A stretch of 64,000 bases of DNA from Bacteroidetes/Chlorobi group bacterium MS-B_bin-24 (GCA_003731685.1 RCNO01000003.1:6780-70779), one strand, 5' to 3'; positions 29,438-40,803 are shown, numbered from the stretch's first letter. Numbers and translations are program-made. Notes: generated by a model not told the origin, from the letters alone.

Positions 29438-30475
29438 ATGTTAGATATCGATTTGTTTTTGCTTCTTCAAATGCCCGATATGGTCATTATCGAGGAGACA
29501 AGCGACCCTAATAATACTCGCTTTATTTTGCAACCACTCGAAAAAGGTTACGGCGTTACGATTGGTAATTCTTTCCGTCGCGTCTTGATTTCTACTGTCC
29601 CCGGCTATGCTATTATTGGGGTGAAATTTACTGATGTGCTCCACGAATTCCAAAATATTCCCGGGGTGCTCGAAGATGTTACCGATATTATTATGAATTT
29701 GAAGCAGGTTCGAATTCGAGCAACCGAAGGTAAACCGTTCAAGGTAAATCTCCATTTGAAAGGACCTTATACTTGGACGGCAAAGGACATACAGCGGAGC
29801 TCTGCACTGCTGGAAGTCACTAATCCTGACCTCCATATTGCAAGTCTTGCCGAAGATGCTGAGTTCGATGTTGAACTCCGAATTGGATTCGGCAAAGGCT
29901 ATATCCCAGCCGAGGAGCATCCTTTGGTAGATTATCCAATTGGGATGCTTCCAATTGATGCTATTTATACCCCAATAAAAAATGTTATTTACACAGTTGA
30001 ACCGCATCGGGTTGGTCAAAAAACTGACTACGAAAGACTGATTTTAGATGTATTGACCGATGGTACTATTACCCCAGCCGAGGCGGTTCAATTTGCTGCC
30101 AAAGTTTTATCGGAGCATATACAGTATTTCTTAACCTTCAAAGGTATTGAAAAACCAACCATAGTCGAAACAACTCCTGCTGATGAGACTCTTGAAAGCG
30201 AACAAGTCCGATTGCGAAGGATTTTATCGATACCCGTCGAAGATTTAGAAATAAGTGTTCGTGCATATAATTGCTTAAAGTCTAATAACATAAAGACATT
30301 GGGCGATATAGTTTCGAAAACCGAAGCGGATTTATTGAAACTGAAAAATTTTGGTCGAAAGTCGCTTAAGGAATTGGAAACGATTGTCCATCAATTTGGA
30401 CTTGAATTTGGTTTAAATTTAAGTCGCTATTTAAAATCCGAAAAATCGAACCGCTCTTTCGATTATGATTACTAA
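29438..30475 (+). CDS. rpoA: DNA-directed RNA polymerase subunit alpha
   Basis: 345 aa with an N-terminal dimerisation domain (LQPLEKGYGVTIGNSFRRVLISTVPG) and a C-terminal domain (LEISVRAYNCLKSNNIKTLGDIV). It directly follows rpsK with no rpsD in between. Confidence 0.95.
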   Translation: MLDIDLFLLLQMPDMVIIEETSDPNNTRFILQPLEKGYGVTIGNSFRRVLISTVPGYAIIGVKFTDVLHEFQNIPGVLEDVTDIIMNLKQVRIRATEGKPFKVNLHLKGPYTWTAKDIQRSSALLEVTNPDLHIASLAEDAEFDVELRIGFGKGYIPAEEHPLVDYPIGMLPIDAIYTPIKNVIYTVEPHRVGQKTDYERLILDVLTDGTITPAEAVQFAAKVLSEHIQYFLTFKGIEKPTIVETTPADETLESEQVRLRRILSIPVEDLEISVRAYNCLKSNNIKTLGDIVSKTEADLLKLKNFGRKSLKELETIVHQFGLEFGLNLSRYLKSEKSNRSFDYDY

Positions 30476-30493: not shown

Positions 30494-31234
30494 ATGAGAC
30501 ATTTGAAAAAAGGATGGAAATTAAAAAGAACAGCTAGTCATCGTAAGGCTTTGCTAAGAAATTTAGCTATGTCTCTTTTTGAACATAAAAAGATTGTTAC
30601 AACAGTAGCCAAAGCAAAAGCATTGCGACCTTTTGTGGAAAAAATAATTACTCGAGCGAAACGAGCCGTAATTCGTGAAAAGAATGGACAACTACCCGAA
30701 GGAATGAAATATGACATTCATTCGCGTCGATTAGTTGCAAGCCTGATTCCCAACAAAGCAATTGTCCAAGAGCTTTTCGATACAATTGCACCAACTGTTT
30801 TGGACAGACCCGGAGGCTATACCCGAATTGTTAAATTGGGCTTCCGTCGTGGTGATGCAGCCGAACTCGCTGCCATTGAACTTGTTGATTGGGGAGCTCC
30901 ACAAGATGGTAATGTTTCGTTGAAGCAGAGCAAGAAGAAAGCGGCGAAAAAGACTTCGAAAGCCAAAGCCCCTGCAGAATCGAAGAAGAAGGCTGCGAAA
31001 GCTACCGAACCAGTCGCCGAGCAGACTCCCGAACCAGTTGCAGAGAAAACCGAAGCGGTAATGCCTTCGACCGAAGTTAAGGAAGAAAAACCGCAAGCCG
31101 AAGTCAGCTCGTCCTCCGAAGAATCTGCCCTTGCAGAAGAAGCCCAAACAGCAGAGGATGTTACTTCTGCTTCGGCTGAATCCGATGCTATTTCCGAAAA
31201 GCCTTCGCAAGATGAAATAAAAAGCGAAAACTAA
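30494..31234 (+). CDS. rplQ: 50S ribosomal protein L17 with about 110-aa K/A/E/P/S-rich C-terminal extension
   Basis: The N-terminal 135 aa or so is typical L17 (MRHLKKGWKLKRTASHRKALLRNLAMSLFEHKKIVTT...). The tail is low complexity (KKAAKKTSKAKAPAESKKKAAKATEPVAEQTPEPVAEK...). Confidence 0.92.
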   Translation: MRHLKKGWKLKRTASHRKALLRNLAMSLFEHKKIVTTVAKAKALRPFVEKIITRAKRAVIREKNGQLPEGMKYDIHSRRLVASLIPNKAIVQELFDTIAPTVLDRPGGYTRIVKLGFRRGDAAELAAIELVDWGAPQDGNVSLKQSKKKAAKKTSKAKAPAESKKKAAKATEPVAEQTPEPVAEKTEAVMPSTEVKEEKPQAEVSSSSEESALAEEAQTAEDVTSASAESDAISEKPSQDEIKSEN

Positions 31235-31275
31235 GAGAAGTAGCTGACATTTTTTAAATAAATAAGAGGGTTGAT

Positions 31276-31733
31276 ATGAAGAAAGCATTTATTGTTACTT
31301 TTGTAACAGTGTTTCTCTTTTTTGGTTGTGGTGGAGATAAGAGCCGAGATTCAGGTCAGAAAACTTCGGAAGCAACAACATCGGGTCTGACGCGGTTTGA
31401 GTTGGAAAATGGGATTGGACCGATAAAAGAGAAATTACAACTTGGTCCGATTGATACAAATTGGCAGCAAAAGGGGAAGAGATTTGGAAACAAAAGTGTT
31501 CTGCTTGCCACAAATTGAATGAGCGTTACATAGGACCAGCACATAGTGAGGTTCTTAAAAGACGTACCCCTGAATTCGTAATGAATATTATGTTGAACCC
31601 AGAAGAGATGCAAAAGAAACACCCCGAGGTCAAAAAGTTGCTCGCTGAATATTTATCGGTTATGCCTAACCAAAATCTTACACTTGATGATGCTCGCGCA
31701 GTTTTAGAATTTTTGAGATTATCCACCAAATAA
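31276..31733 (+). pseudogene. Lipoprotein mono-haem cytochrome c (nos-associated), interrupted by a 1-nt frameshift near 31459-31462
   Basis: ORF 31276-31518 carries the signal peptide and lipobox (LFFGC) and then ends in a nonsense tail. ORF 31461-31733, one frame back, carries the haem site CSACH and a distal Met. Inserting a single T (AAT TTG GCA) would fuse them as ...LGPIDTN-LAAKGEEIWKQKCSACH. Confidence 0.6.
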
Positions 31734-31815
31734 ATTTTTTTTATTCTAAAATCAGATTTTTTTTCTTATTATATTTTATATGGAAAATTTTTTTTTAATT
31801 TGCAATTTGGTATTT

Positions 31816-31837
31816 TGTGTAGGCACAGTTCTACACA
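31816..31837. promoter_or_regulatory. 22-bp palindrome TGTGTAG-N8-CTACACA upstream of nosZ
   Basis: Perfect 7-bp inverted repeat read at 31816-31822 and 31831-31837, about 35 nt before the likely nosZ ATG (31871). The TGTG...CACA ends are reminiscent of Crp/Fnr-family half sites. Its function is not shown. Confidence 0.3.
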
Positions 31838-31870
31838 AAAATGTGTGTTAAACAATTTGAAGAGGTTCTT

Positions 31871-33835
31871 ATGTTCAACGCATTTACGAAAAAAGCAATC
31901 TTAATCGGATTGACTTTCGCTGCGTTAGTTGGTATCTACTTTGGATGTAAATCATCCAAAGAAGTTGTAAGTGGTGATGTTGCAAAAGCAGTTTATGTTC
32001 CCCCCGGAAGTTACGACGAGTTTTATCTATTTACCTCCGGGGGATTTAACGGGCAGGTAGGTGTGTATGGGCTTCCCTCGGGTAGGCACTTCAAAACCAT
32101 TTCTGTTTTCTCGCAAAATCCAGAAACTGGGTATGGCTATACCGAAGAGACCAAGCCAATGCTTATGACATCTTATGGGTTTATACCTTGGGACGATTCC
32201 CCCCATCCAGAACTATCGATGACCGATGGCGTACCCGATGGACGCTTTTTGTTTATTAATGCGAACAATACTCCTCGAGTTGCCAAGATTGATTTGCGTA
32301 CCTTCGAAACGACAGAAATCATCGAAATACCCAATGCAGCAGGAAATCACGCCTCGCCTTTTGTAACAGAAAATACTGAATATATTGTGGCTTCAACAAT
32401 GTTTAGCATTCCAATTCCACAGGCGGATGTTTCGATTTCTTCTTATAAGGAAAACTTTAAAGGGACAATTAGTTTTATTGCGTTAGACCCCAAGACAGAA
32501 AGAATGAATCTGGCTTTTCAGATTTTAGTTCCCGGATTTGATTACGACCTTGCTCACGCTGGCAAAGGTCCATCGCACGATTGGGCATTTTTCACTTGTT
32601 ATAATACTGAGCAAGCTAATACTCTGCTCGAAGTTAATGCATCGAAGAACGATAAAGATTTCATTGCCGCTGTCAATTGGAAATTGGCTGAAAAATATGT
32701 ACAGGAAGGCAAAGCAAAAAAAATGAATGTGGAATATTACCATAATGTTTATGATGAAAAGAAACATATGGCTACAAGCGAAGTAAAAACCGCAGTCTTA
32801 GTGCTCGAACCAAAGGATTGTCCGGGTATGATCTATTATCTACCAACTCCAAAATCTCCACACGGTGTAGATGTAGACCCAACAGGAGAATACATTGTCG
32901 GTGGGGGCAAGCTTGCTACAGTTATTCCTGTACATTCATTTTCTAAAATGTTAAAGGCTATCGAAAATAAGCAGTTCGACGGAGAAATCAACGGAATCCC
33001 AATTTTGAAATATGAAGCGGTGATGGCTGGTGAAGTTCAAAATCCCGGGCTCGGTCCACTGCATACTGAATTCGATGGCAAAGGTTATGCCTATACTTCG
33101 TGCTTCGTTTCATCCGAAATAGTAAAATGGAAACTTGGCACTTGGGAAGTTGTCGATAGAATCCCTGTATATTATTCGGTTGGACACCTTTGCATACCCG
33201 GAGGAGATAGCAAAAAGCCTTGGGGTAAATATGTTGTTGCATTGAATAAAATTACAAAGGACAGATATTTGCCCACAGGACCGGAACTTACTCAATCTGC
33301 ACAATTGATTGACATAACTGGTGAAAAAATGAAGATGTTGCTCGATTTCCCAACAGTTGGAGAGCCACATTATGCTCAGTCTATTCCAGCAGAAATACTA
33401 ATGAAAAATAGTGCCAAGATTTACAAACTCGAAGAGAATCAGCATCCTTATGCTGTTTTGAAAGAAGCCGATGCCCGAGTGGAACGTAAAGGGAACGAAG
33501 TTCACATTTATATGACCGCTATTCGTAGCCACTTTGCTCCCGATAATATCGAAGGTATTAAAGCTGGCGATGTTGTTTATTTCCATGTAACAAATCTTGA
33601 ACAAGATTGGGATATTCCTCATGGATTTACAATTAAAGGCTTAACAAATGCTGAAATGTTGATAATGCCTGGGCAAACAAAAACAATAGTATGGAAACCA
33701 ACTAAACCAGGGGTGTATCCATTTTATTGCACTGACTTTAGCTCCGCTCTGCACCAAGAGATGCAAGGATACGTCCGAGTTTCGCCTGCAAATGCCAATG
33801 TTCAGATAAGCTACAACACAACAGGGAAAAAATAA
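31871..33835 (+). CDS. nosZ: Nitrous-oxide reductase NosZ, clade II (Sec-type signal), with two non-canonical metal-ligand positions
   Basis: Propeller plus cupredoxin architecture, with motifs GNHASPF, KSPHGVDV, GLGPLHTEFDG, GEPHYAQ, DIPHGF and YCTDFSSALHQEM. The N-terminus MFNAFTKKAILIGLTFAALVGIYFGC has no twin-arginine. I chose the start at ATG 31871 (GAAGAGG upstream). The tracked ATG at 31841 is also possible. Confidence 0.9.
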   Translation: MFNAFTKKAILIGLTFAALVGIYFGCKSSKEVVSGDVAKAVYVPPGSYDEFYLFTSGGFNGQVGVYGLPSGRHFKTISVFSQNPETGYGYTEETKPMLMTSYGFIPWDDSPHPELSMTDGVPDGRFLFINANNTPRVAKIDLRTFETTEIIEIPNAAGNHASPFVTENTEYIVASTMFSIPIPQADVSISSYKENFKGTISFIALDPKTERMNLAFQILVPGFDYDLAHAGKGPSHDWAFFTCYNTEQANTLLEVNASKNDKDFIAAVNWKLAEKYVQEGKAKKMNVEYYHNVYDEKKHMATSEVKTAVLVLEPKDCPGMIYYLPTPKSPHGVDVDPTGEYIVGGGKLATVIPVHSFSKMLKAIENKQFDGEINGIPILKYEAVMAGEVQNPGLGPLHTEFDGKGYAYTSCFVSSEIVKWKLGTWEVVDRIPVYYSVGHLCIPGGDSKKPWGKYVVALNKITKDRYLPTGPELTQSAQLIDITGEKMKMLLDFPTVGEPHYAQSIPAEILMKNSAKIYKLEENQHPYAVLKEADARVERKGNEVHIYMTAIRSHFAPDNIEGIKAGDVVYFHVTNLEQDWDIPHGFTIKGLTNAEMLIMPGQTKTIVWKPTKPGVYPFYCTDFSSALHQEMQGYVRVSPANANVQISYNTTGKK

Positions 33836-33952
33836 TTTGCATATGTTGCTTATAGTAAAGAACGAATGAGTTGGATTTAAAGTAGTTTTTATGGATTAAT
33901 CCAAAATGTTTTTAAATATTGTTTCCATCTATAATGTTAGTTTGAATCTGTC

Positions 33953-33981
33953 GGGGGAGGTTTTCTCCCCCTTTATATTTT
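33953..33981 (+). terminator. Rho-independent terminator after nosZ
   Basis: GGGGGAG (33953-33959), 5-nt loop, CTCCCCC (33965-33971), then TTTATATTTT. Confidence 0.65.
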
Positions 33982-34025
33982 AAGTGGTCAAATTGTTAAT
34001 TGTTAAATTATTTATAGGCTAAAAA

Positions 34026-34601
34026 ATGAAAAAAAGTTCAAAGATATTATTGTTGGTTAGTTCATTAATTCTTATTGGAATTTTTTTCTTTCCGCTTTGG
34101 ACAATCGACTTGCAAGCTCCGCAATACCCCGAAGGACTTACAATGGGTAGCTGGATTAACAAAATATCGGGAGATCTGAAAATAATAAACGATTTGAACC
34201 ATTATGTAGGAATGAAGGAAATCGTACCCGATGCTATTCCAGAGCTCAAGTATATGCCCTTCATTGTTGGTTTTCTAATTGTTTTTGGTCTTGTCAATTT
34301 CTTTTTAGGGAATAAAAAATTAGTTTGGGTTTGGATTATTCTTTTCGTTCTTTTAGGGGCCATTGGTCTTTATGACTTTTATATGTGGGAATATGATTAT
34401 GGCCACAATTTAAATCCAAATGCTGCAATTAAAATTCCTGGAATGGCTTACCAGCCCCCTTTGATTGGTTCGAAGCAAATGCTCAATTTCCATGTTGACT
34501 CTTATCCATCAATAGGGTTTGTTATAATAGCAGTTTCTATTCTTTTAGCCATTTTAGCTATATATTTGAGTAGAAATGTTGAACATAAACAGGAGGGGTA
34601 A
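34026..34601 (+). CDS. Integral membrane protein, NosB-like (gene immediately downstream of clade II nosZ)
   Basis: 191 aa with 4 predicted hydrophobic helices. Its position after nosZ matches the membrane protein described as nosB in clade II clusters. I recognised no diagnostic motif. Confidence 0.5.
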   Translation: MKKSSKILLLVSSLILIGIFFFPLWTIDLQAPQYPEGLTMGSWINKISGDLKIINDLNHYVGMKEIVPDAIPELKYMPFIVGFLIVFGLVNFFLGNKKLVWVWIILFVLLGAIGLYDFYMWEYDYGHNLNPNAAIKIPGMAYQPPLIGSKQMLNFHVDSYPSIGFVIIAVSILLAILAIYLSRNVEHKQEG

Positions 34602-34605
34602 TATA

Positions 34606-35073
34606 ATGAATTTTCTTTTGTTGATTTCTGTAATTGGATTGTTATTCTTTGGATGTTCACGAGGTCCCGAACCAATTGATTATGGTAAGGATGCGTGTGC
34701 TGCTTGCAAGATGACAATAATGGATAATAAATATGCAGCGGAAATAGTAACGAAAAAAGGGAAAGTTTATAAATTCGATGCAATAGAGTGCTTGTTTAAT
34801 TTCAAGGCAAAAAATTTAAAGGAAGAGGATATATTTTCCGAGTGGGTATGCGATTTTTCGGACCCCGGTAAATTGATTAATTTAAGGAAGGCATATTTCC
34901 TTCATACCGAAGCTTTCCAAAGCCCGATGGGACTGGATGTTCTTGCTGTAGCCACCAAAGATAAAGTTAAAGAGATTCAGACTAAGTATGGCGGACATAT
35001 TATGAATTACAATGAGGTTCGGGACTTTGCAATTCAAAGAAAAATGATGAATGAGATGGAAATGAAACATTAA
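34606..35073 (+). CDS. nosL: Copper chaperone lipoprotein NosL
   Basis: Lipobox LLFFGC and a NosL-like core (IDYGKDACAACKMTIMDNKYAAEIVTKKGKVYKFDAIEC). I moved the start to ATG 34606 after AGGAGG. The tracked start at 34576 overlaps the upstream gene. Confidence 0.85.
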   Translation: MNFLLLISVIGLLFFGCSRGPEPIDYGKDACAACKMTIMDNKYAAEIVTKKGKVYKFDAIECLFNFKAKNLKEEDIFSEWVCDFSDPGKLINLRKAYFLHTEAFQSPMGLDVLAVATKDKVKEIQTKYGGHIMNYNEVRDFAIQRKMMNEMEMKH

Positions 35074-35081
35074 AAAGAAGT

Positions 35082-36341
35082 ATGGAAAAAATGAGAATGT
35101 TTTTTAGACTTTGGAGTCTAGTTTTTATACTTTTGCTATATCCTTTGCTGAGTTATTCTGCTCGGACTTATTTGATTTCAAATGAAAAGGAACTAATAAA
35201 CACATTGCGAATAGTCGCCGATGGAGATTCCATTGTTGTTAAGCCGGGGAGGTACTTAGTTGATAGTTTGGTGATTCGCAGGTCAATTAGTTTGATAGGG
35301 ATAAACTTTCCGGAGATAATTGGAAACAAAAGGGATGAAGTGATAACTATCCGTGCCAATGGGGTACTGGTTAAAGGGTTAAAAGTCAAAAATGCGGGTA
35401 TTAGTTTTCTTCGCGAAAATGTCGCAATAAGATTCGAAGAAGTTAATGGGGGCGTTGCAGAAGGCAATATTTTGGACAGCAATTTTTTTGGCATTTATAT
35501 TTCAAAATCTCAAAACTGTGTTGTAAAGAACAATGTGATAGTTGCTTATAACAGAACCGAAACATTTTCTGGGAACGGCATTCATCTTTGGTATTCAAAA
35601 AATATTACTATTATAGGGAATAAGATTCAAGGACATAGAGATGGAATTTACTTTGAGTTTGTTAAACATGCGCTTGTAAAAGGGAATTATAGCAAAGATA
35701 ATCTTCGCTATGGTCTTCACTTTATGTTTTCCGATAGTTGTGGTTACATCGAAAACACTTTCGAAAGCAACGGTGCTGGGATTGCGGTTATGTATACCAA
35801 AAATGTTACAATTAAATCGAATCGTTTTATCAATAATTGGGGTTCCGCTTCTTTTGGTTTGTTGCTTAAAGAGTTGACCAACTGTTTGATAGAGAACAAT
35901 CATTTCGAGAAAAATACTAATGGACTTTATTTGGAAGGTTCAAATCGTATTACAGTGAAACGGAACAATTTTATTCGGAATGGTTGGGCTATCAAATTGA
36001 TGGAAAATTCAATGGAAAATTACTTTACCGATAATAACTTTGTTGGAAATTCATTTGATGTGCTTTCGAACAACAGAACTACTTACAATACTTTTTTTAG
36101 AAACTATTGGAGTCGATATACAGGATTCGACTTGAATCGTGATGGTTATGGAGATGTTCCCTATCGCCCTGTCTCCTTTTTCTCAATTATAGTCGAAAGA
36201 CAACCTAATGCTTTGGTTTTGTTGCATAGCCTTTTTGTGGGTTTACTTAACTTTGCCGAAAGTATTATTCCATCGCTAACGCCAATGAATTTATTTGACC
36301 CAGAACCAAGAATTAAGAGTTTTCCAATAAGTTTATCTTAA
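35082..36341 (+). CDS. nosD: Periplasmic parallel beta-helix protein NosD
   Basis: 419 aa with a signal peptide and repeated beta-helix turns carrying NosD-like blocks (GNGIHLWYS, RDGIYFEF, RYGLHFMFS, GAGIAVMYT, DLNRDGYGDVPYRP). Confidence 0.88.
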   Translation: MEKMRMFFRLWSLVFILLLYPLLSYSARTYLISNEKELINTLRIVADGDSIVVKPGRYLVDSLVIRRSISLIGINFPEIIGNKRDEVITIRANGVLVKGLKVKNAGISFLRENVAIRFEEVNGGVAEGNILDSNFFGIYISKSQNCVVKNNVIVAYNRTETFSGNGIHLWYSKNITIIGNKIQGHRDGIYFEFVKHALVKGNYSKDNLRYGLHFMFSDSCGYIENTFESNGAGIAVMYTKNVTIKSNRFINNWGSASFGLLLKELTNCLIENNHFEKNTNGLYLEGSNRITVKRNNFIRNGWAIKLMENSMENYFTDNNFVGNSFDVLSNNRTTYNTFFRNYWSRYTGFDLNRDGYGDVPYRPVSFFSIIVERQPNALVLLHSLFVGLLNFAESIIPSLTPMNLFDPEPRIKSFPISLS

Positions 36342-36352
36342 TTAATTGAACA

Positions 36353-37072
36353 ATGGTTGAAATTCAAAATTTATCGAAAAGATTTGGGAGATTTGAAGTT
36401 TTAAAAGAGATTAACGCAAATTTTAAAAGCGGGAAAATTACGGCAATTGCTGGTCCTAACGGTTCGGGTAAGACTACGCTTATCAAAATAATTTTAGGTT
36501 TGGTGAAAGCCGATAGTGGGAAAGTGTATGTCTTCGGTGAACCTATTAACGGCGTTTGTAGTTATCGCCAAAAAATAGGATATATGCCCCAAATTGCCAA
36601 TTACCCCGAAAATTTGACCATTTCTGATATCATTAAACTCATTAAGGAACTAAGAAATGTTCGTGGGAATATCGAGGAAAAATTCATTAGAGAATTCAAT
36701 TTAGAGAACGATTTGAACAAGCCAATAAGGACACTTTCGGGTGGTACGCGACAAAAAGTTGGGGCAGTTCTCTCCTTGATGTTTGACCCAAGTGTTTTAA
36801 TCTTCGATGAACCAACTGTTGGGATGGACCCTGTTGTGAGCAGCCGATTCAAAGAAATTATGCTCGAAGAAAAACAAAAGGGCAAAGTCATAATTATTAC
36901 CTCCCACGTTATGAGCGAAATCGAGGAGCTTGCCGACGAAATTCTCTTTCTTTTGAATGGGAAGGTATATTTCAGTGGCTTAATCAGCGAATTGTTGAAT
37001 GCTCAAAACGAGACTAAATTGGAGCGTGCCGTTGCCAAGATTTTAGAAAATCAAACAATTTTGGATGTTTAA
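36353..37072 (+). CDS. nosF: ABC transporter ATP-binding protein NosF
   Basis: Walker A GPNGSGKTT, signature LSGGTRQKV and Walker B LIFDEPT. It directly follows nosD. Confidence 0.88.
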   Translation: MVEIQNLSKRFGRFEVLKEINANFKSGKITAIAGPNGSGKTTLIKIILGLVKADSGKVYVFGEPINGVCSYRQKIGYMPQIANYPENLTISDIIKLIKELRNVRGNIEEKFIREFNLENDLNKPIRTLSGGTRQKVGAVLSLMFDPSVLIFDEPTVGMDPVVSSRFKEIMLEEKQKGKVIIITSHVMSEIEELADEILFLLNGKVYFSGLISELLNAQNETKLERAVAKILENQTILDV

Positions 37073-37087
37073 CAATTCAGGTGTTCT

Positions 37088-37513
37088 ATGATACACATTA
37101 AATTTTTCGATTGGTTTGAAAATCATATTAATATTGCCTATTCGCTTATAAGAATTTTTCTCGGCTTTGCGTTGTGTATACGAGGTCTTTTGTTTATGTT
37201 TGACCCACAGACATTGACCAATCTTGCTGGCGAACCCCAAAATTTTTGGATTTTTGCTTATACCTCTGTGGGGCATCTTATTGGTGGTTTTCTTCTAGGA
37301 ATTGGCTGGTTCGTTCGGCTTGGTGCTTTAATCCAAATACCAATATTACTTGGAGCAGTTTTTACTATCCACTTACGTGTAGGACTGCTAACCTCTGGAC
37401 AATCGCTTGAACTTTCGGTGCTTGTTCTTTTTCTCCTGGTTGTTTTCTTTTTGTTTGGTGATGGTGGCATAACAATCAAAAGCATTTTCAAGAAAAGCTC
37501 TGTTACCAATTAA
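37088..37513 (+). CDS. Small four-helix membrane protein, DoxX-like
   Basis: 141 aa with four hydrophobic segments and a pattern (LIRIFLGFALCIRG...HLIGGFLLGIG...) that resembles the DoxX/DoxD family. The assignment is by eye only. Confidence 0.5.
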   Translation: MIHIKFFDWFENHINIAYSLIRIFLGFALCIRGLLFMFDPQTLTNLAGEPQNFWIFAYTSVGHLIGGFLLGIGWFVRLGALIQIPILLGAVFTIHLRVGLLTSGQSLELSVLVLFLLVVFFLFGDGGITIKSIFKKSSVTN

Positions 37514-37518
37514 ATTCA

Positions 37519-37911
37519 ATGCGGATTGCCTTTATTACATATGTGTTAGGGGTTCTATCATATTTTATAACTATAAATGCGAATCTTGTCGCATACTTTG
37601 AATATTTGGTCAATTATGATTTCATAGTGCAAAACCTTTGTGTGCAAAAAGATGAACCTATCAACACTTGTCACGGACATTGCCATTTGCGAAAAAATTT
37701 GGAGAAAGTAGAGGAAAATAATGGAACGAAAGAAAGAAAAAATGTAGAGTTGAAAACTAATGTCAAGATAGAAAATCATCGTTTAACATCAACAGTTTGC
37801 AATTTAATACCGAACATTACTTCCCTGATTTTTTACAATTTTAATGTCAATTACTTGATTAAACCTTTTGTTGAAAAAAACGATCCCCCTCCAAGGCAGT
37901 TTTCATTTTGA
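37519..37911 (+). CDS. Hypothetical N-terminally anchored protein with Cys/His cluster
   Basis: 130 aa with one N-terminal hydrophobic helix, then NLCVQKDEPINTCHGHCHLRKNL and a C-terminal DPPP. It starts 5 nt after the DoxX-like gene and lies upstream of the receptor gene. Confidence 0.55.
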   Translation: MRIAFITYVLGVLSYFITINANLVAYFEYLVNYDFIVQNLCVQKDEPINTCHGHCHLRKNLEKVEENNGTKERKNVELKTNVKIENHRLTSTVCNLIPNITSLIFYNFNVNYLIKPFVEKNDPPPRQFSF

Positions 37912-38017
37912 GTTAAAATTCTAACTCACATATTTAGCGTTTTTCTGTTGGGATAACATTTGAATTATTTTTAAAAACTTATGTAAATTTTTTGATAAAC
38001 AATAAAAGGGGGATGTT

Positions 38018-39856
38018 ATGAAAAAATTATTAATTTTTCTTTTCCTTCTTCCATTTGTGTCTTTTGGTGAGGCAAAAGATACTTTAAAGACATATAAAAC
38101 AAGCGAAGTGGAAATTATATCTCGTCGTGAAATCCAGTTTGTAAAACTTCAAGATTATGGTCCGGGTTATAGCAGCGAACTATTAAATCGGAATGGTTAC
38201 CAACTGATTCGCCGCGGATTGAGCTTTACGCAAGACATTTATTCCGATGGGTTTAAGAAAGGTGATATTCGAGTTGTTATTGATGGGGAATATTATCATA
38301 ATGCTTGTCCAAATCGTATGGATGCCCCTGCAACAAGAGTGAATCCGGTCGACTTGTCGGAGGTTGAGATAACCAAAAGTACGAGTTTATTAAGCACTGG
38401 CTTATACGGAAAAGTTGAGTACCATAGAACAAAACTGGAGAAGCCGCTTAGGTTCAAATCCTTTGTCAGCGGTCAAGTCGGTGCAAATTCAGAATACGAT
38501 GTAAGTTTTTCTGCCCAATCACATTGGACAAGTATAAGTGCCCGATTTTCTCAAGGGATTCCTTATAAGAATGCAAAAGGTAATAGTTTTAGGGACCTTT
38601 ATAGGTATAAAGATAATTATAAATTTTCATTTGGAAACATTGGGATTAGAAAACTTTTACCGGAATTAAATTTAGAAGCAGGCTTTAATTTTTCCTACGC
38701 AAAAGATATTTCCTTCCCCTATTTGATGATGGATGAAAGAAGCAGCAAAGTATTTAGTGGTTATTTACAATATAAAGGATATAAGGCATATTTGAATTAT
38801 ACTGACCATTTAATGAATGATGGATTGCGAGAGAATGCAATGGGTATGGAAACACGGGCTAAAAACATTACCACTGGAATTAAAGGCGATTTCTTTGAAT
38901 TTGTCTATCGGAATTGGAATGCGGATAATGTTATAATGCAAATTTCAAACAAAATGCTACCAAATGTCGACCAGTTTGCATTAAATCTTGCTTCCGATTA
39001 TTCACTTGGCTTTGTGAAGTTATTTTTTAAAGGGGGAGTGAATTATCTTCGCTATAAAGACGAATCGCGAAAGGCATTTTTCGAGTCGCTTTATCCCGAT
39101 GCAAAGACAGGACGAATTTTCATTTCTGGAGGTCTTAGCGCAATAATTGGGCATCAATTCTCCGAAAAACTTCTGTGGTCAGTTCTTCCAGAAATTGCAA
39201 CAGATGCGCCAGAGCCTGAAATGCTTTTTCTTGCACTCGTTCGGCCTATGAACAAACCCGATTGGAGCGGTAATCCAACTCTGAAACAACCGATAAGAGC
39301 TACTTTGCGAACATCGTTGCAAACAGATTTCTTAACCCTTGAGCTTTTTGGAAATTATGTTTTGAATTACGTTGATATTGTAGTTAAAAAGAAAGAAATG
39401 AAAAATGCAATGACCTACAACAACGTAAATGCAATCATAGCTGGGGCAAATTTGAAATTTAACTATAAGTGGCTGACCACAGAACTTTCCTACCTTTGGG
39501 GAGAAAATGAGGACAATAAGAAACCGCTTGCCGAAATTGTGCCACTTTCAATTTCTTCCAAAGTGGAAATTCCGATTGTCGAAAATCTTTCCGTCTTGCT
39601 AACCCACAGGTGGGAAAACGCACAAAAGAGAGTTAATCCCGATTTGAAGGAATTTTCCACTCCGGCTTGGAACACACTGGGTTTGGGGCTTGTTTACTCG
39701 TTTAGTTGGATACATTTCGATTTACAAATACAAAATCTTCTCAATCATAATTATTACAGATTTCTTTCGTTTTCGAGGAACCCATTTTCCGCTGGTTTGC
39801 CAGTTTATGAGCCGGGTCGTGTATTTATGCTAACAGTTTATTTCAATAAGAATTAG
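38018..39856 (+). CDS. TonB-dependent receptor-like outer-membrane protein (OprC/NosA-like candidate copper channel)
   Basis: 612 aa with a signal peptide and a plug-like N-terminal region (...LIRRGLSFTQDIYSDGFKKGDIRVVIDGEYY...). The remainder is rich in alternating aromatic beta-strand patterns. It contains C97-PNR-M101 and H264-L-M266. Confidence 0.65.
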   Translation: MKKLLIFLFLLPFVSFGEAKDTLKTYKTSEVEIISRREIQFVKLQDYGPGYSSELLNRNGYQLIRRGLSFTQDIYSDGFKKGDIRVVIDGEYYHNACPNRMDAPATRVNPVDLSEVEITKSTSLLSTGLYGKVEYHRTKLEKPLRFKSFVSGQVGANSEYDVSFSAQSHWTSISARFSQGIPYKNAKGNSFRDLYRYKDNYKFSFGNIGIRKLLPELNLEAGFNFSYAKDISFPYLMMDERSSKVFSGYLQYKGYKAYLNYTDHLMNDGLRENAMGMETRAKNITTGIKGDFFEFVYRNWNADNVIMQISNKMLPNVDQFALNLASDYSLGFVKLFFKGGVNYLRYKDESRKAFFESLYPDAKTGRIFISGGLSAIIGHQFSEKLLWSVLPEIATDAPEPEMLFLALVRPMNKPDWSGNPTLKQPIRATLRTSLQTDFLTLELFGNYVLNYVDIVVKKKEMKNAMTYNNVNAIIAGANLKFNYKWLTTELSYLWGENEDNKKPLAEIVPLSISSKVEIPIVENLSVLLTHRWENAQKRVNPDLKEFSTPAWNTLGLGLVYSFSWIHFDLQIQNLLNHNYYRFLSFSRNPFSAGLPVYEPGRVFMLTVYFNKN

Positions 39857-39945
39857 TTTTTTTTACTTCGGGAACGGAAATTCAAACAGCGAAGAAGGGG
39901 ACAATCCCGTTTATTTCAATAAGAATTAGTTTTTTTTACTTCGGG
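39836..39945 (+). repeat. Perfect 37-bp direct repeat (two copies, 73-bp period) duplicating the receptor gene 3' end
   Basis: GTTTATTTCAATAAGAATTAGTTTTTTTTACTTCGGG is read at 39836-39872 and again at 39909-39945. Copy 1 contains the last 6 codons plus the stop codon of the 38018-39856 gene. Confidence 0.9.
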
Positions 39946-39975
39946 GCTTGCCAATTCTTGGCGAGCCCCATTTTG
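39943..39975 (+). terminator. Rho-independent terminator
   Basis: 12-bp stem GGGGCTTGCCAA (39943-39954) / TTGGCGAGCCCC (39958-39969) with one G-U pair and a 3-nt loop, then ATTTTG. Confidence 0.7.
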
Positions 39976-40014
39976 CGATTTATACCTTAAATTTGTTGTT
40001 TTATCGAGGCAAAA

Positions 40015-40803
40015 ATGAATTTTGTTTTTAAGATTTTGAAGATAGAATTAAATAATGTAATCAAAAGCCGTTGGTTTTTCTTCTTTTTTGGCTTTTTCTT
40101 TCTTGTCTCCTATGCATTGTTATCGTTTGAGGACAATATTCAGAAAAGTTTATTAAGTCTTTTAAACTTGGTGATTTACCTTGCACCATTAATAACGCTG
40201 ATTTTTGGGACTATGTATTTTTACAATTCCCAGCCTTACATCGAGATGATGCTTAGCCAACCCATTCCCCGAGCCTCATTGTTTGTTGGCTTATATCTTG
40301 GAACTTCAATCCCGTTAATGTTGAGTTTTATTTTGGGGCTATTCCTTCCTTTTTTATTGTTTTCGGATATTTTAGCTTACTTAAATCTTTTCTTAATCCT
40401 ATTATTAATTTTAATTCTTCTTACGCTTTCTTTTGTATCAATTGCTTTTTGGATATCAACGGAAATCGGTGATAAAGTAAAAGGTTTGAGTCTTTCGATT
40501 TTGATTTGGCTGGTTTTTGGCATAGCATTCGATGGTTTAATTCTTTTTATTACTTTTCTTTTCTCGGATTATCCTTTGGAGAAAATCTTAATTGGCTTAA
40601 CTGTTTTAAATCCAATTAACCTTTCTCGCACTATTTTTGTTCTTAATTTTGAAATCTCCGCGCTAATGGGTATCACTGGTGCAGTATTTAAAAAGTTTTT
40701 TGGCAGTTCATTGGGAACTTTTGTCTCTTTGGGCTCAATGTTGTTTTGGATTGTAATCCCGTTTCTTTTTGGGTTAATTGGCTTTAAACGAAAAGATTTT
40801 TAA
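40015..40803 (+). CDS. nosY: ABC-2 type permease NosY
   Basis: 262 aa with about 6 hydrophobic helices and a NosY-like N-terminus (ILKIELNNVIKSRWFFFF). It lies in the nos cluster but is separated from nosF by 2.9 kb. Confidence 0.75.
   Translation: MNFVFKILKIELNNVIKSRWFFFFFGFFFLVSYALLSFEDNIQKSLLSLLNLVIYLAPLITLIFGTMYFYNSQPYIEMMLSQPIPRASLFVGLYLGTSIPLMLSFILGLFLPFLLFSDILAYLNLFLILLLILILLTLSFVSIAFWISTEIGDKVKGLSLSILIWLVFGIAFDGLILFITFLFSDYPLEKILIGLTVLNPINLSRTIFVLNFEISALMGITGAVFKKFFGSSLGTFVSLGSMLFWIVIPFLFGLIGFKRKDF

Follow-up and report, generated by a model that had tools for sequence, protein, structure and literature searches.

A probable recent loss-of-function nosZ allele, changed at both copper centres and still transcribed, in a hot-spring bacterium

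Can a nitrous oxide (N2O) reductase function when one of the seven histidines that hold its catalytic CuZ cluster has become a proline? The question is raised by the nosZ gene on a 64,000-nucleotide stretch of DNA from Bacteroidetes/Chlorobi group bacterium MS-B_bin-24 (GCA_003731685.1 RCNO01000003.1:6780-70779), a hot-spring bacterium; the whole of this stretch is called the window below. A sequence-only reading of the window had noticed the proline and proposed three explanations: an error of assembly or in a homopolymer, a mutation that inactivates the enzyme, or a variant NosZ whose catalytic cluster is altered. Our comparisons with homologues, conspecific strains and assembled contigs (Logan, JGI, ENA) suggest that this is very probably a recent loss-of-function allele of nosZ, the opening stage in the decay of a nos cluster and fixed in one hot-spring strain lineage, and that it is still transcribed. 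The gene and the three codons at issue are:

31841..33835, plus strand: nosZ, a 664-residue open reading frame for a Sec/lipoprotein-type (clade II) nitrous-oxide reductase, identified by TIGR04246 and PDB matches
32201..32203, plus strand: codon 121, CCC (Pro), at the position of the leading His in the CuZ His-His pair (H129 in Pseudomonas stutzeri); ancestral codon CAC
32399..32401, plus strand: codon 187, ATG (Met), replacing an Arg from which none of the clade II relatives departs; ancestral codon AGG
33740..33742, plus strand: codon 634, AGC (Ser), replacing the second bridging Cys of the CuA site (C622 in P. stutzeri); ancestral codon TGT

The protein matches TIGR04246, the Sec-dependent clade II NosZ of Ignavibacteria/Kapabacteria-type bacteria, over its full length (962.5 bits against a cutoff of 625, residues 48-649), scores 366 bits with the Tat-type NosZ model, and matches N2O reductase chains in the PDB at E ~1e-87 (phmmer). 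The true start of translation is likely to be Met11 at 31871, judging from the residues that follow (MFNAFTKK...IYFGC, with a lipobox), and one cluster member, P0122, is a 654-residue NosZ form that begins at this methionine. From Met11 the signal region reads MFNAFTKKAILIGLTFAALVGIYFGC, with a lipobox Cys and without RR, as read by eye rather than by a predictor. This lipoprotein-type signal peptide is shared with the clade II relatives, as is the gene order (cytochrome c, nosZ, membrane protein, nosL, nosD, nosF, nosY), and the window protein is 96% identical to the NosZ of a conspecific strain and 84-87% identical to proteins from Ignavibacterium and Ignavibacteriaceae metagenome-assembled genomes (MAGs). 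Unlike these relatives, it carries H121P, R187M and C634S, and the adjacent cytochrome c gene is frameshifted. Membership of the clade III, lactonase-type L-NosZ family (NF052460) was considered and rejected (172 bits against a cutoff of 700): the protein is instead typical of clade II bar the three point changes, and its deviations are common to no relative. Within the 64-kb window, nosZ is present in a single copy.

In the nosZ frame, nucleotides 32189-32212 read TGG GAC GAT TCC CCC CAT CCA GAA, or W-D-D-S-P-H-P-E, and the Pro codon sits in a run of six C (32199-32204), one nucleotide away from CAC; both points agree with what the sequence-only reading had reported. Residue equivalents in the P. 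stutzeri enzyme come from counting along the numbered PDB chains that phmmer aligned. Residues 129 and 130 are matched there by Pro121 and His122; chain 6y6y_A, in P. stutzeri numbering, has Ala at 129, where the wild type has His. The alignment thus bears out both the assignment of the proline to the H129 column and the retention of the second His of the pair. The seven-His CuZ set (H129, H130, H178, H326, H382, H433 and H494) is incomplete here, with Pro at position 121 and the six remaining ligands present as H122, H170, H341, H408, H449 and H510, the last five being the equivalents of H178, H326, H382, H433 and H494. The earlier statement that the other CuZ histidines look intact stands for these six, but not for all the motifs cited in its favour: His239 of DLAHAG (32555-32557) aligns to a non-His stretch of the P. 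stutzeri enzyme and is not a CuZ ligand, while the true equivalent of H433, His449 in SVGH (33185-33187), had been overlooked.

Conservation of these positions was read from two homologue sets, one of the 120 best database NosZ matches (73-96% identity, aligned with MAFFT) and one of 80 NosZ genes from GTDB species genomes (69-87% identity), 200 in total. The column of Pro121 holds His in 200 of 200, so the orthologue alignment proposed as a check on the proline returns no instance of Pro-His in any relative. Of the matches listed by a metagenome pattern scan for W-D-D-A-P-H-P, 80 loci were inspected, and these contain no NosZ gene.

The CuA site is altered as well. Its motif reads C630-T-D-F-S634-S-A-L-H638-Q-E-M641, which leaves the ligand set (His, Cys-x3-Cys-x3-His-x2-Met) incomplete: H594, C630, H638 and M641 are present, and the second Cys, found in all 200 homologues, is Ser634. 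The third change, R187M, replaces an Arg that is likewise present in 200 of 200; residue 187 aligns to E196 of P. stutzeri N2O reductase, and no clade II structure was among the PDB search matches. Departures from columns conserved in at least 97% of the 120 database homologues are exactly H121P, R187M and C634S, and all three columns are 100% invariant there; in the GTDB set the same columns are H, R and C in 80 of 80. Just ten codon changes in nosZ, six of them non-synonymous and four synonymous, set the window lineage apart; of these, Y2C and one synonymous change fall upstream of the probable start at Met11. The protein from Met11 therefore has five private amino-acid changes (H121P, R187M, E318A, V575A and C634S), three of them on invariant columns and two on metal ligands, and none is a compensating gain of His or Cys.

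The setting of the Pro codon, within a six-C run and a single nucleotide off CAC, is one in which a sequencing or assembly artefact might have turned CAC into CCC. The change is, however, a substitution and not an indel, and two more substitutions at invariant sites, both outside homopolymers, travel with it. The exact 664-residue protein is recorded on 40 contigs (JGI, Logan, ENA) and the form starting at Met11 (P0122) on a further 19; all 24 of the JGI/ENA contigs with mutated NosZ that were read, 10 distinct places being displayed, encode exactly the same protein. The DNA of 31200-34000 was found at 97-100% of sampled words in 18 hot-spring or microbial-mat metagenome runs and two metatranscriptomes, which stem from different samples and were released in 2017 and 2019. 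Logan contigs aligned to this interval came from seven DNA runs (X1, X2, X3, X14, X17, X18 and X20) and two RNA runs (X16 and X19), and at word depths of 5-82 they contain no alternative base within nosZ; assemblies drop rare variants, so a minority intact nosZ allele in these samples could escape a comparison of contigs. Identity across separately assembled libraries refutes the error explanation, to which we attach next to no probability. Correction at the RNA level, by editing, was also considered and rejected, as the RNA contigs show the same bases as the DNA.

Conspecific strains establish which state is the older. The best database match to the window NosZ (P0002, 96% identity) is carried by JGI contig L001. 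Over 20 kb this contig and the window are collinear, with 98.3% DNA identity, and L001 therefore represents a conspecific strain. Together with three further conspecific references (L002-L004; 97.5-98.5% DNA identity for the four), it has CAC, AGG and TGT at codons 121, 187 and 634; among the more distant outgroups (L009-L011), L009 has CAC, AGG and TGT and L011 has CAC, AGA and TGT. Since conspecifics and outgroups carry the ancestral or synonymous codons, the window states are derived: CAC became CCC (an A-to-C change), AGG became ATG, and TGT became AGC, for which two nucleotide changes are needed. No intermediate haplotype occurs among the listed cluster members. A lineage-wide variant was rejected, given His in the conspecific strains as well as in the 200 homologues. 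Contigs of the mutated lineage agree throughout the coding sequence of nosZ, a homopolymer variant at 32715 excepted, and this absence of nosZ diversity makes the lineage look like a young clone. Conspecific strains in other samples retain His, Arg and Cys, and the mutated allele is the sole one assembled in the hot-spring and mat runs examined.

What might such changes do to the enzyme? Each of the seven CuZ histidines of P. stutzeri N2O reductase has been changed to alanine (Zhang, Bill, Kroneck and Einsle, Chem Sci 2021; PMC8179356). The H129A variant had CuA spectra only and was completely inactive, with an unchanged fold and a CuZ site that was empty in one monomer and held a Zn2+ ion in the other (PMC8179356). 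H129A is also among the variant chains that the PDB comparison listed. The same ligand position is lost in the window NosZ; H129A, however, is an engineered Ala in a Tat-exported clade I enzyme with intact CuA, whereas in the window allele the Pro arose naturally, in a clade II protein, and is combined with a Cys-to-Ser change at CuA. The CuA site is binuclear; besides the two bridging Cys thiolates, its ligands are a pair of His, one Met and a backbone carbonyl (PMC8179356, PMC13685413). Ser634 takes the place of one of these thiolates. Variants of N2O reductase and of cytochrome oxidase subunit II that are without one bridging Cys generally lose the mixed-valence binuclear site.

As a real and heritable A-to-C change, H121P removes one of the seven His ligands of the catalytic CuZ cluster, and loss of the His129 equivalent would leave the [4Cu:2S] cluster unassembled. 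Loss of the second bridging Cys, with a serine hydroxyl in its place removing the bridge, would in turn leave the binuclear CuA unable to form. NosZ would thus be made and exported, yet unable to reduce N2O, and we infer an exported protein that is apo-like or mis-metallated and inactive as an N2O reductase. Once selection on the pathway had ceased, its partner gene for cytochrome c could have been frameshifted next in part of the lineage, the window included, placing the nos cluster at an early stage of pseudogenisation while its transcription continues. The cytochrome c gene lies directly upstream of nosZ:

31276..31733, plus strand: nos-associated lipoprotein cytochrome c gene, broken in two by a 1-nucleotide deletion after 31456

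An intact electron donor, the nos-associated c-type cytochrome, is thus lacking in the window and present in some sister contigs. One C has been lost after 31456 (GATACCAAA to GATA-CAAA), which leaves an 80-residue piece with the signal peptide (31276-31518) and a piece with the CxxCH haem domain and no signal peptide (31461-31733). The gene is an intact open reading frame of 152 residues in the conspecific contigs L001-L004 and the outgroups L009-L011. Among contigs with mutated NosZ, the deletion is present in the window, L005, L012, L014 (plus nine similar places), L018, L019, L021 and run X16, and absent in L007, L013, L015, L016, L017, L020 and runs X19 and X20. It is therefore polymorphic within the mutated-NosZ lineage, which places the NosZ substitutions before the cytochrome c frameshift. 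In some JGI assemblies of the same allele two homopolymers are one A longer: A9 for A8 in nosZ at 32715, splitting the gene into 301 and 370 residues (L005-L008, four samples), and A7 for A6 in nosL at 34808 (L005 and L012). These insertions may be real further lesions or homopolymer errors.

C634S, R187M and the cytochrome c frameshift, which accompany H121P, point towards inactivation, the second of the explanations first proposed. With CAC ancestral, the column invariant in 200 homologues, H129A inactive and other lesions co-occurring, inactivation now has strong support.

Transcription of the allele continues. A 3,222-nucleotide contig from metatranscriptome X16 starts at 31248, 28 nucleotides before the cytochrome c start, spans cytochrome c and nosZ into the next gene, and is identical to the window; in X19, also RNA, the haplotype with intact cytochrome c lies on an 11-kb contig. 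The nos contig of X16 has a word depth of 33 against 4-14 on contigs of rpoA and rplQ, though the depth of a contig reflects expression poorly. This start and greater depth suggest that a separate promoter drives the nos transcript. Continued transcription of a disabled nosZ fits a recent loss.

Downstream of nosZ, the remainder of the cluster consists of the following:

34026..40803, plus strand: rest of the nos cluster, with genes for a 191-residue membrane protein, nosL, nosD, nosF, a DoxX-like protein, a 130-residue and a 612-residue protein, and nosY

The maturation genes expected near a nosZ are all found here: NosD matches TIGR04247 at 408 bits, and nosL, nosF and nosY were assigned by Pfam on the collinear conspecific locus. 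Compared with L001, this part of the window contains no coding-sequence indels, and the ratio of non-synonymous to synonymous change (pN/pS) is 0.02-0.31 for nosL, nosD, nosF, nosY and the three inserted genes. At 39857-39930, between the 612-residue receptor-like gene and nosY, the window has a 74-nucleotide segment that L001 lacks; a direct repeat, AGAATTAGTTTTTTTTA, flanks this segment. On the other side of the cluster, rplQ (30494-31234) stops three codons early (E247*) relative to conspecific strains.

Several observations weigh against a simple loss of function. The main point for retained function is the intact nosZ open reading frame together with a transcript depth above that of rpoA and rplQ. 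In addition, nosL, nosD, nosF and nosY are intact in the window, and the H129A precedent concerns a clade I enzyme with Ala rather than Pro. On this branch nosZ has a ratio of non-synonymous to synonymous private changes of 5:3, which does not exceed those of its neighbours, so rates do not show relaxed selection. Finally, the double hit on metal ligands, considered below, could hint at selection rather than drift.

If nosZ were still functional, the protein would be a variant that reduces N2O or a related substrate by means of a CuZ-like cluster with six His ligands and an altered copper site for electron transfer with a single Cys. The full-length reading frame, the signal peptide, good transcription, the intact maturation genes and the persistence of the allele across samples released in 2017 and 2019 would all be consistent with such an enzyme. 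Against it, His, Arg and Cys are kept in every one of the 200 homologues, the loss of H129 abolishes both cluster assembly and activity in P. stutzeri (PMC8179356), and no His or Cys has been gained in compensation. Much of the lineage has a frameshift in the partner cytochrome c, the bit score sets the protein well apart from L-NosZ, and the allele has no internal diversity in which purifying selection on a new state could appear. We consider a working variant very unlikely; short of biochemistry the altered-cluster explanation keeps this small share of probability, and nothing in evidence supports an altered cluster.

The distribution of the private changes bears on whether nosZ drifted or was selected. 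Invariant columns make up 35% of NosZ among the 120 homologues, and at least three of five changes would fall on them with P = 0.23 under uniform neutral mutation, a pattern that fits a nosZ no longer under selection and not one under selection. As a control, none of six private changes in RpoA falls on a conserved column (120 homologues): conserved sites are still protected in this essential neighbour, but not in nosZ. Private non-synonymous to synonymous counts are 6:2 in rpoA (29438-30475) and 4:3 in rplQ, an excess to be expected on a very short branch; such ratios, high for all genes including rpoA, were rejected as evidence of relaxed selection.

Alternatively, the copper sites may have been dismantled for some advantage, such as copper sparing in sulfidic mats or avoidance of a harmful half-assembled enzyme, or the protein may have been repurposed and kept as a pseudoenzyme. 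Two of the five private changes fall on the 13 metal-ligand residues, which under uniform neutral mutation has P ~0.004, although this value is inflated by ascertainment since it was this feature that drew attention to the window. The two nucleotide changes required within a single codon for C634S, the high transcript level, and the fact that this is the sole allele assembled in every run examined also point towards selection. Yet the later frameshifts in cytochrome c, and possibly those in nosZ and nosL in some assemblies, resemble decay rather than maintenance, the same changes occur in no independent lineage among the 200 homologues, and hitch-hiking in a clonal-looking lineage can explain the prevalence of the allele. 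Selected loss or repurposing is for these reasons unlikely. Its more specific form, an expressed and exported pseudoenzyme whose copper centres were dismantled under selection (for copper sparing, or for a non-catalytic or mononuclear-copper role), is quite unlikely, though if true it would explain the ligand double hit, the two-nucleotide Cys-to-Ser change, the strong transcription and the single assembled allele together.

Judging from its sequence, the host is an uncultured member of the Ignavibacteria/Kapabacteria group. Its RpoA is 98% identical to a conspecific protein and 79-83% identical to the next-best matches; among relatives that have a name, the nearest ('Bacteroidetes/Chlorobi group bacterium Naka2016', Kapaibacteriota) reach only 76-78%. 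The contrast between these values and the 84-87% identity of NosZ to Ignavibacterium-type proteins could mean that the nos cluster was acquired laterally, or only that rates of evolution differ. 'Ca. Thermonerobacter thiotrophicus', in whose MAGs NosZ is listed as a predicted terminal reductase (PMC6338057), was considered as a possible identity; RpoA is just 76% identical to the Nakabusa MAG protein, and this identity is unsupported.

Loss-of-function alleles of denitrification genes are already known, and the window does not represent a new kind of system. In Bacillus bataviensis, nirK and qnorB are denitrification pseudogenes (PMC3475470), and there too a respiratory N-oxide reductase gene was disabled by point mutation while the rest of the gene set was kept. 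The B. bataviensis lesions are nonsense and frameshift mutations flagged by annotation, whereas those in the window NosZ are missense changes at metal ligands that pass unseen by annotation based on hidden Markov models (HMMs); unlike the former, they are documented at population level. What makes the present case noteworthy is that inactivation would be purely missense, involves both copper centres, occurs in the sole allele assembled in many samples, and is accompanied by transcription and by early decay of the operon.

Counts of nosZ genes and transcripts are widely used as a proxy for the capacity of communities to consume N2O, and metabolic reconstructions from MAGs list NosZ as a terminal reductase on any HMM match. 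The window nosZ passes such automated tests (score, length and transcription) despite missing ligands at both copper centres. As a probable population-level example of a cryptic missense pseudogene, it calls for caution in inferring N2O sinks from nosZ and argues for a check of the ligand columns before function is inferred. It may also offer a natural time series of how a respiratory cluster decays, in which the catalytic subunit would have been lost first and the electron donor next, with the maturation genes still intact.

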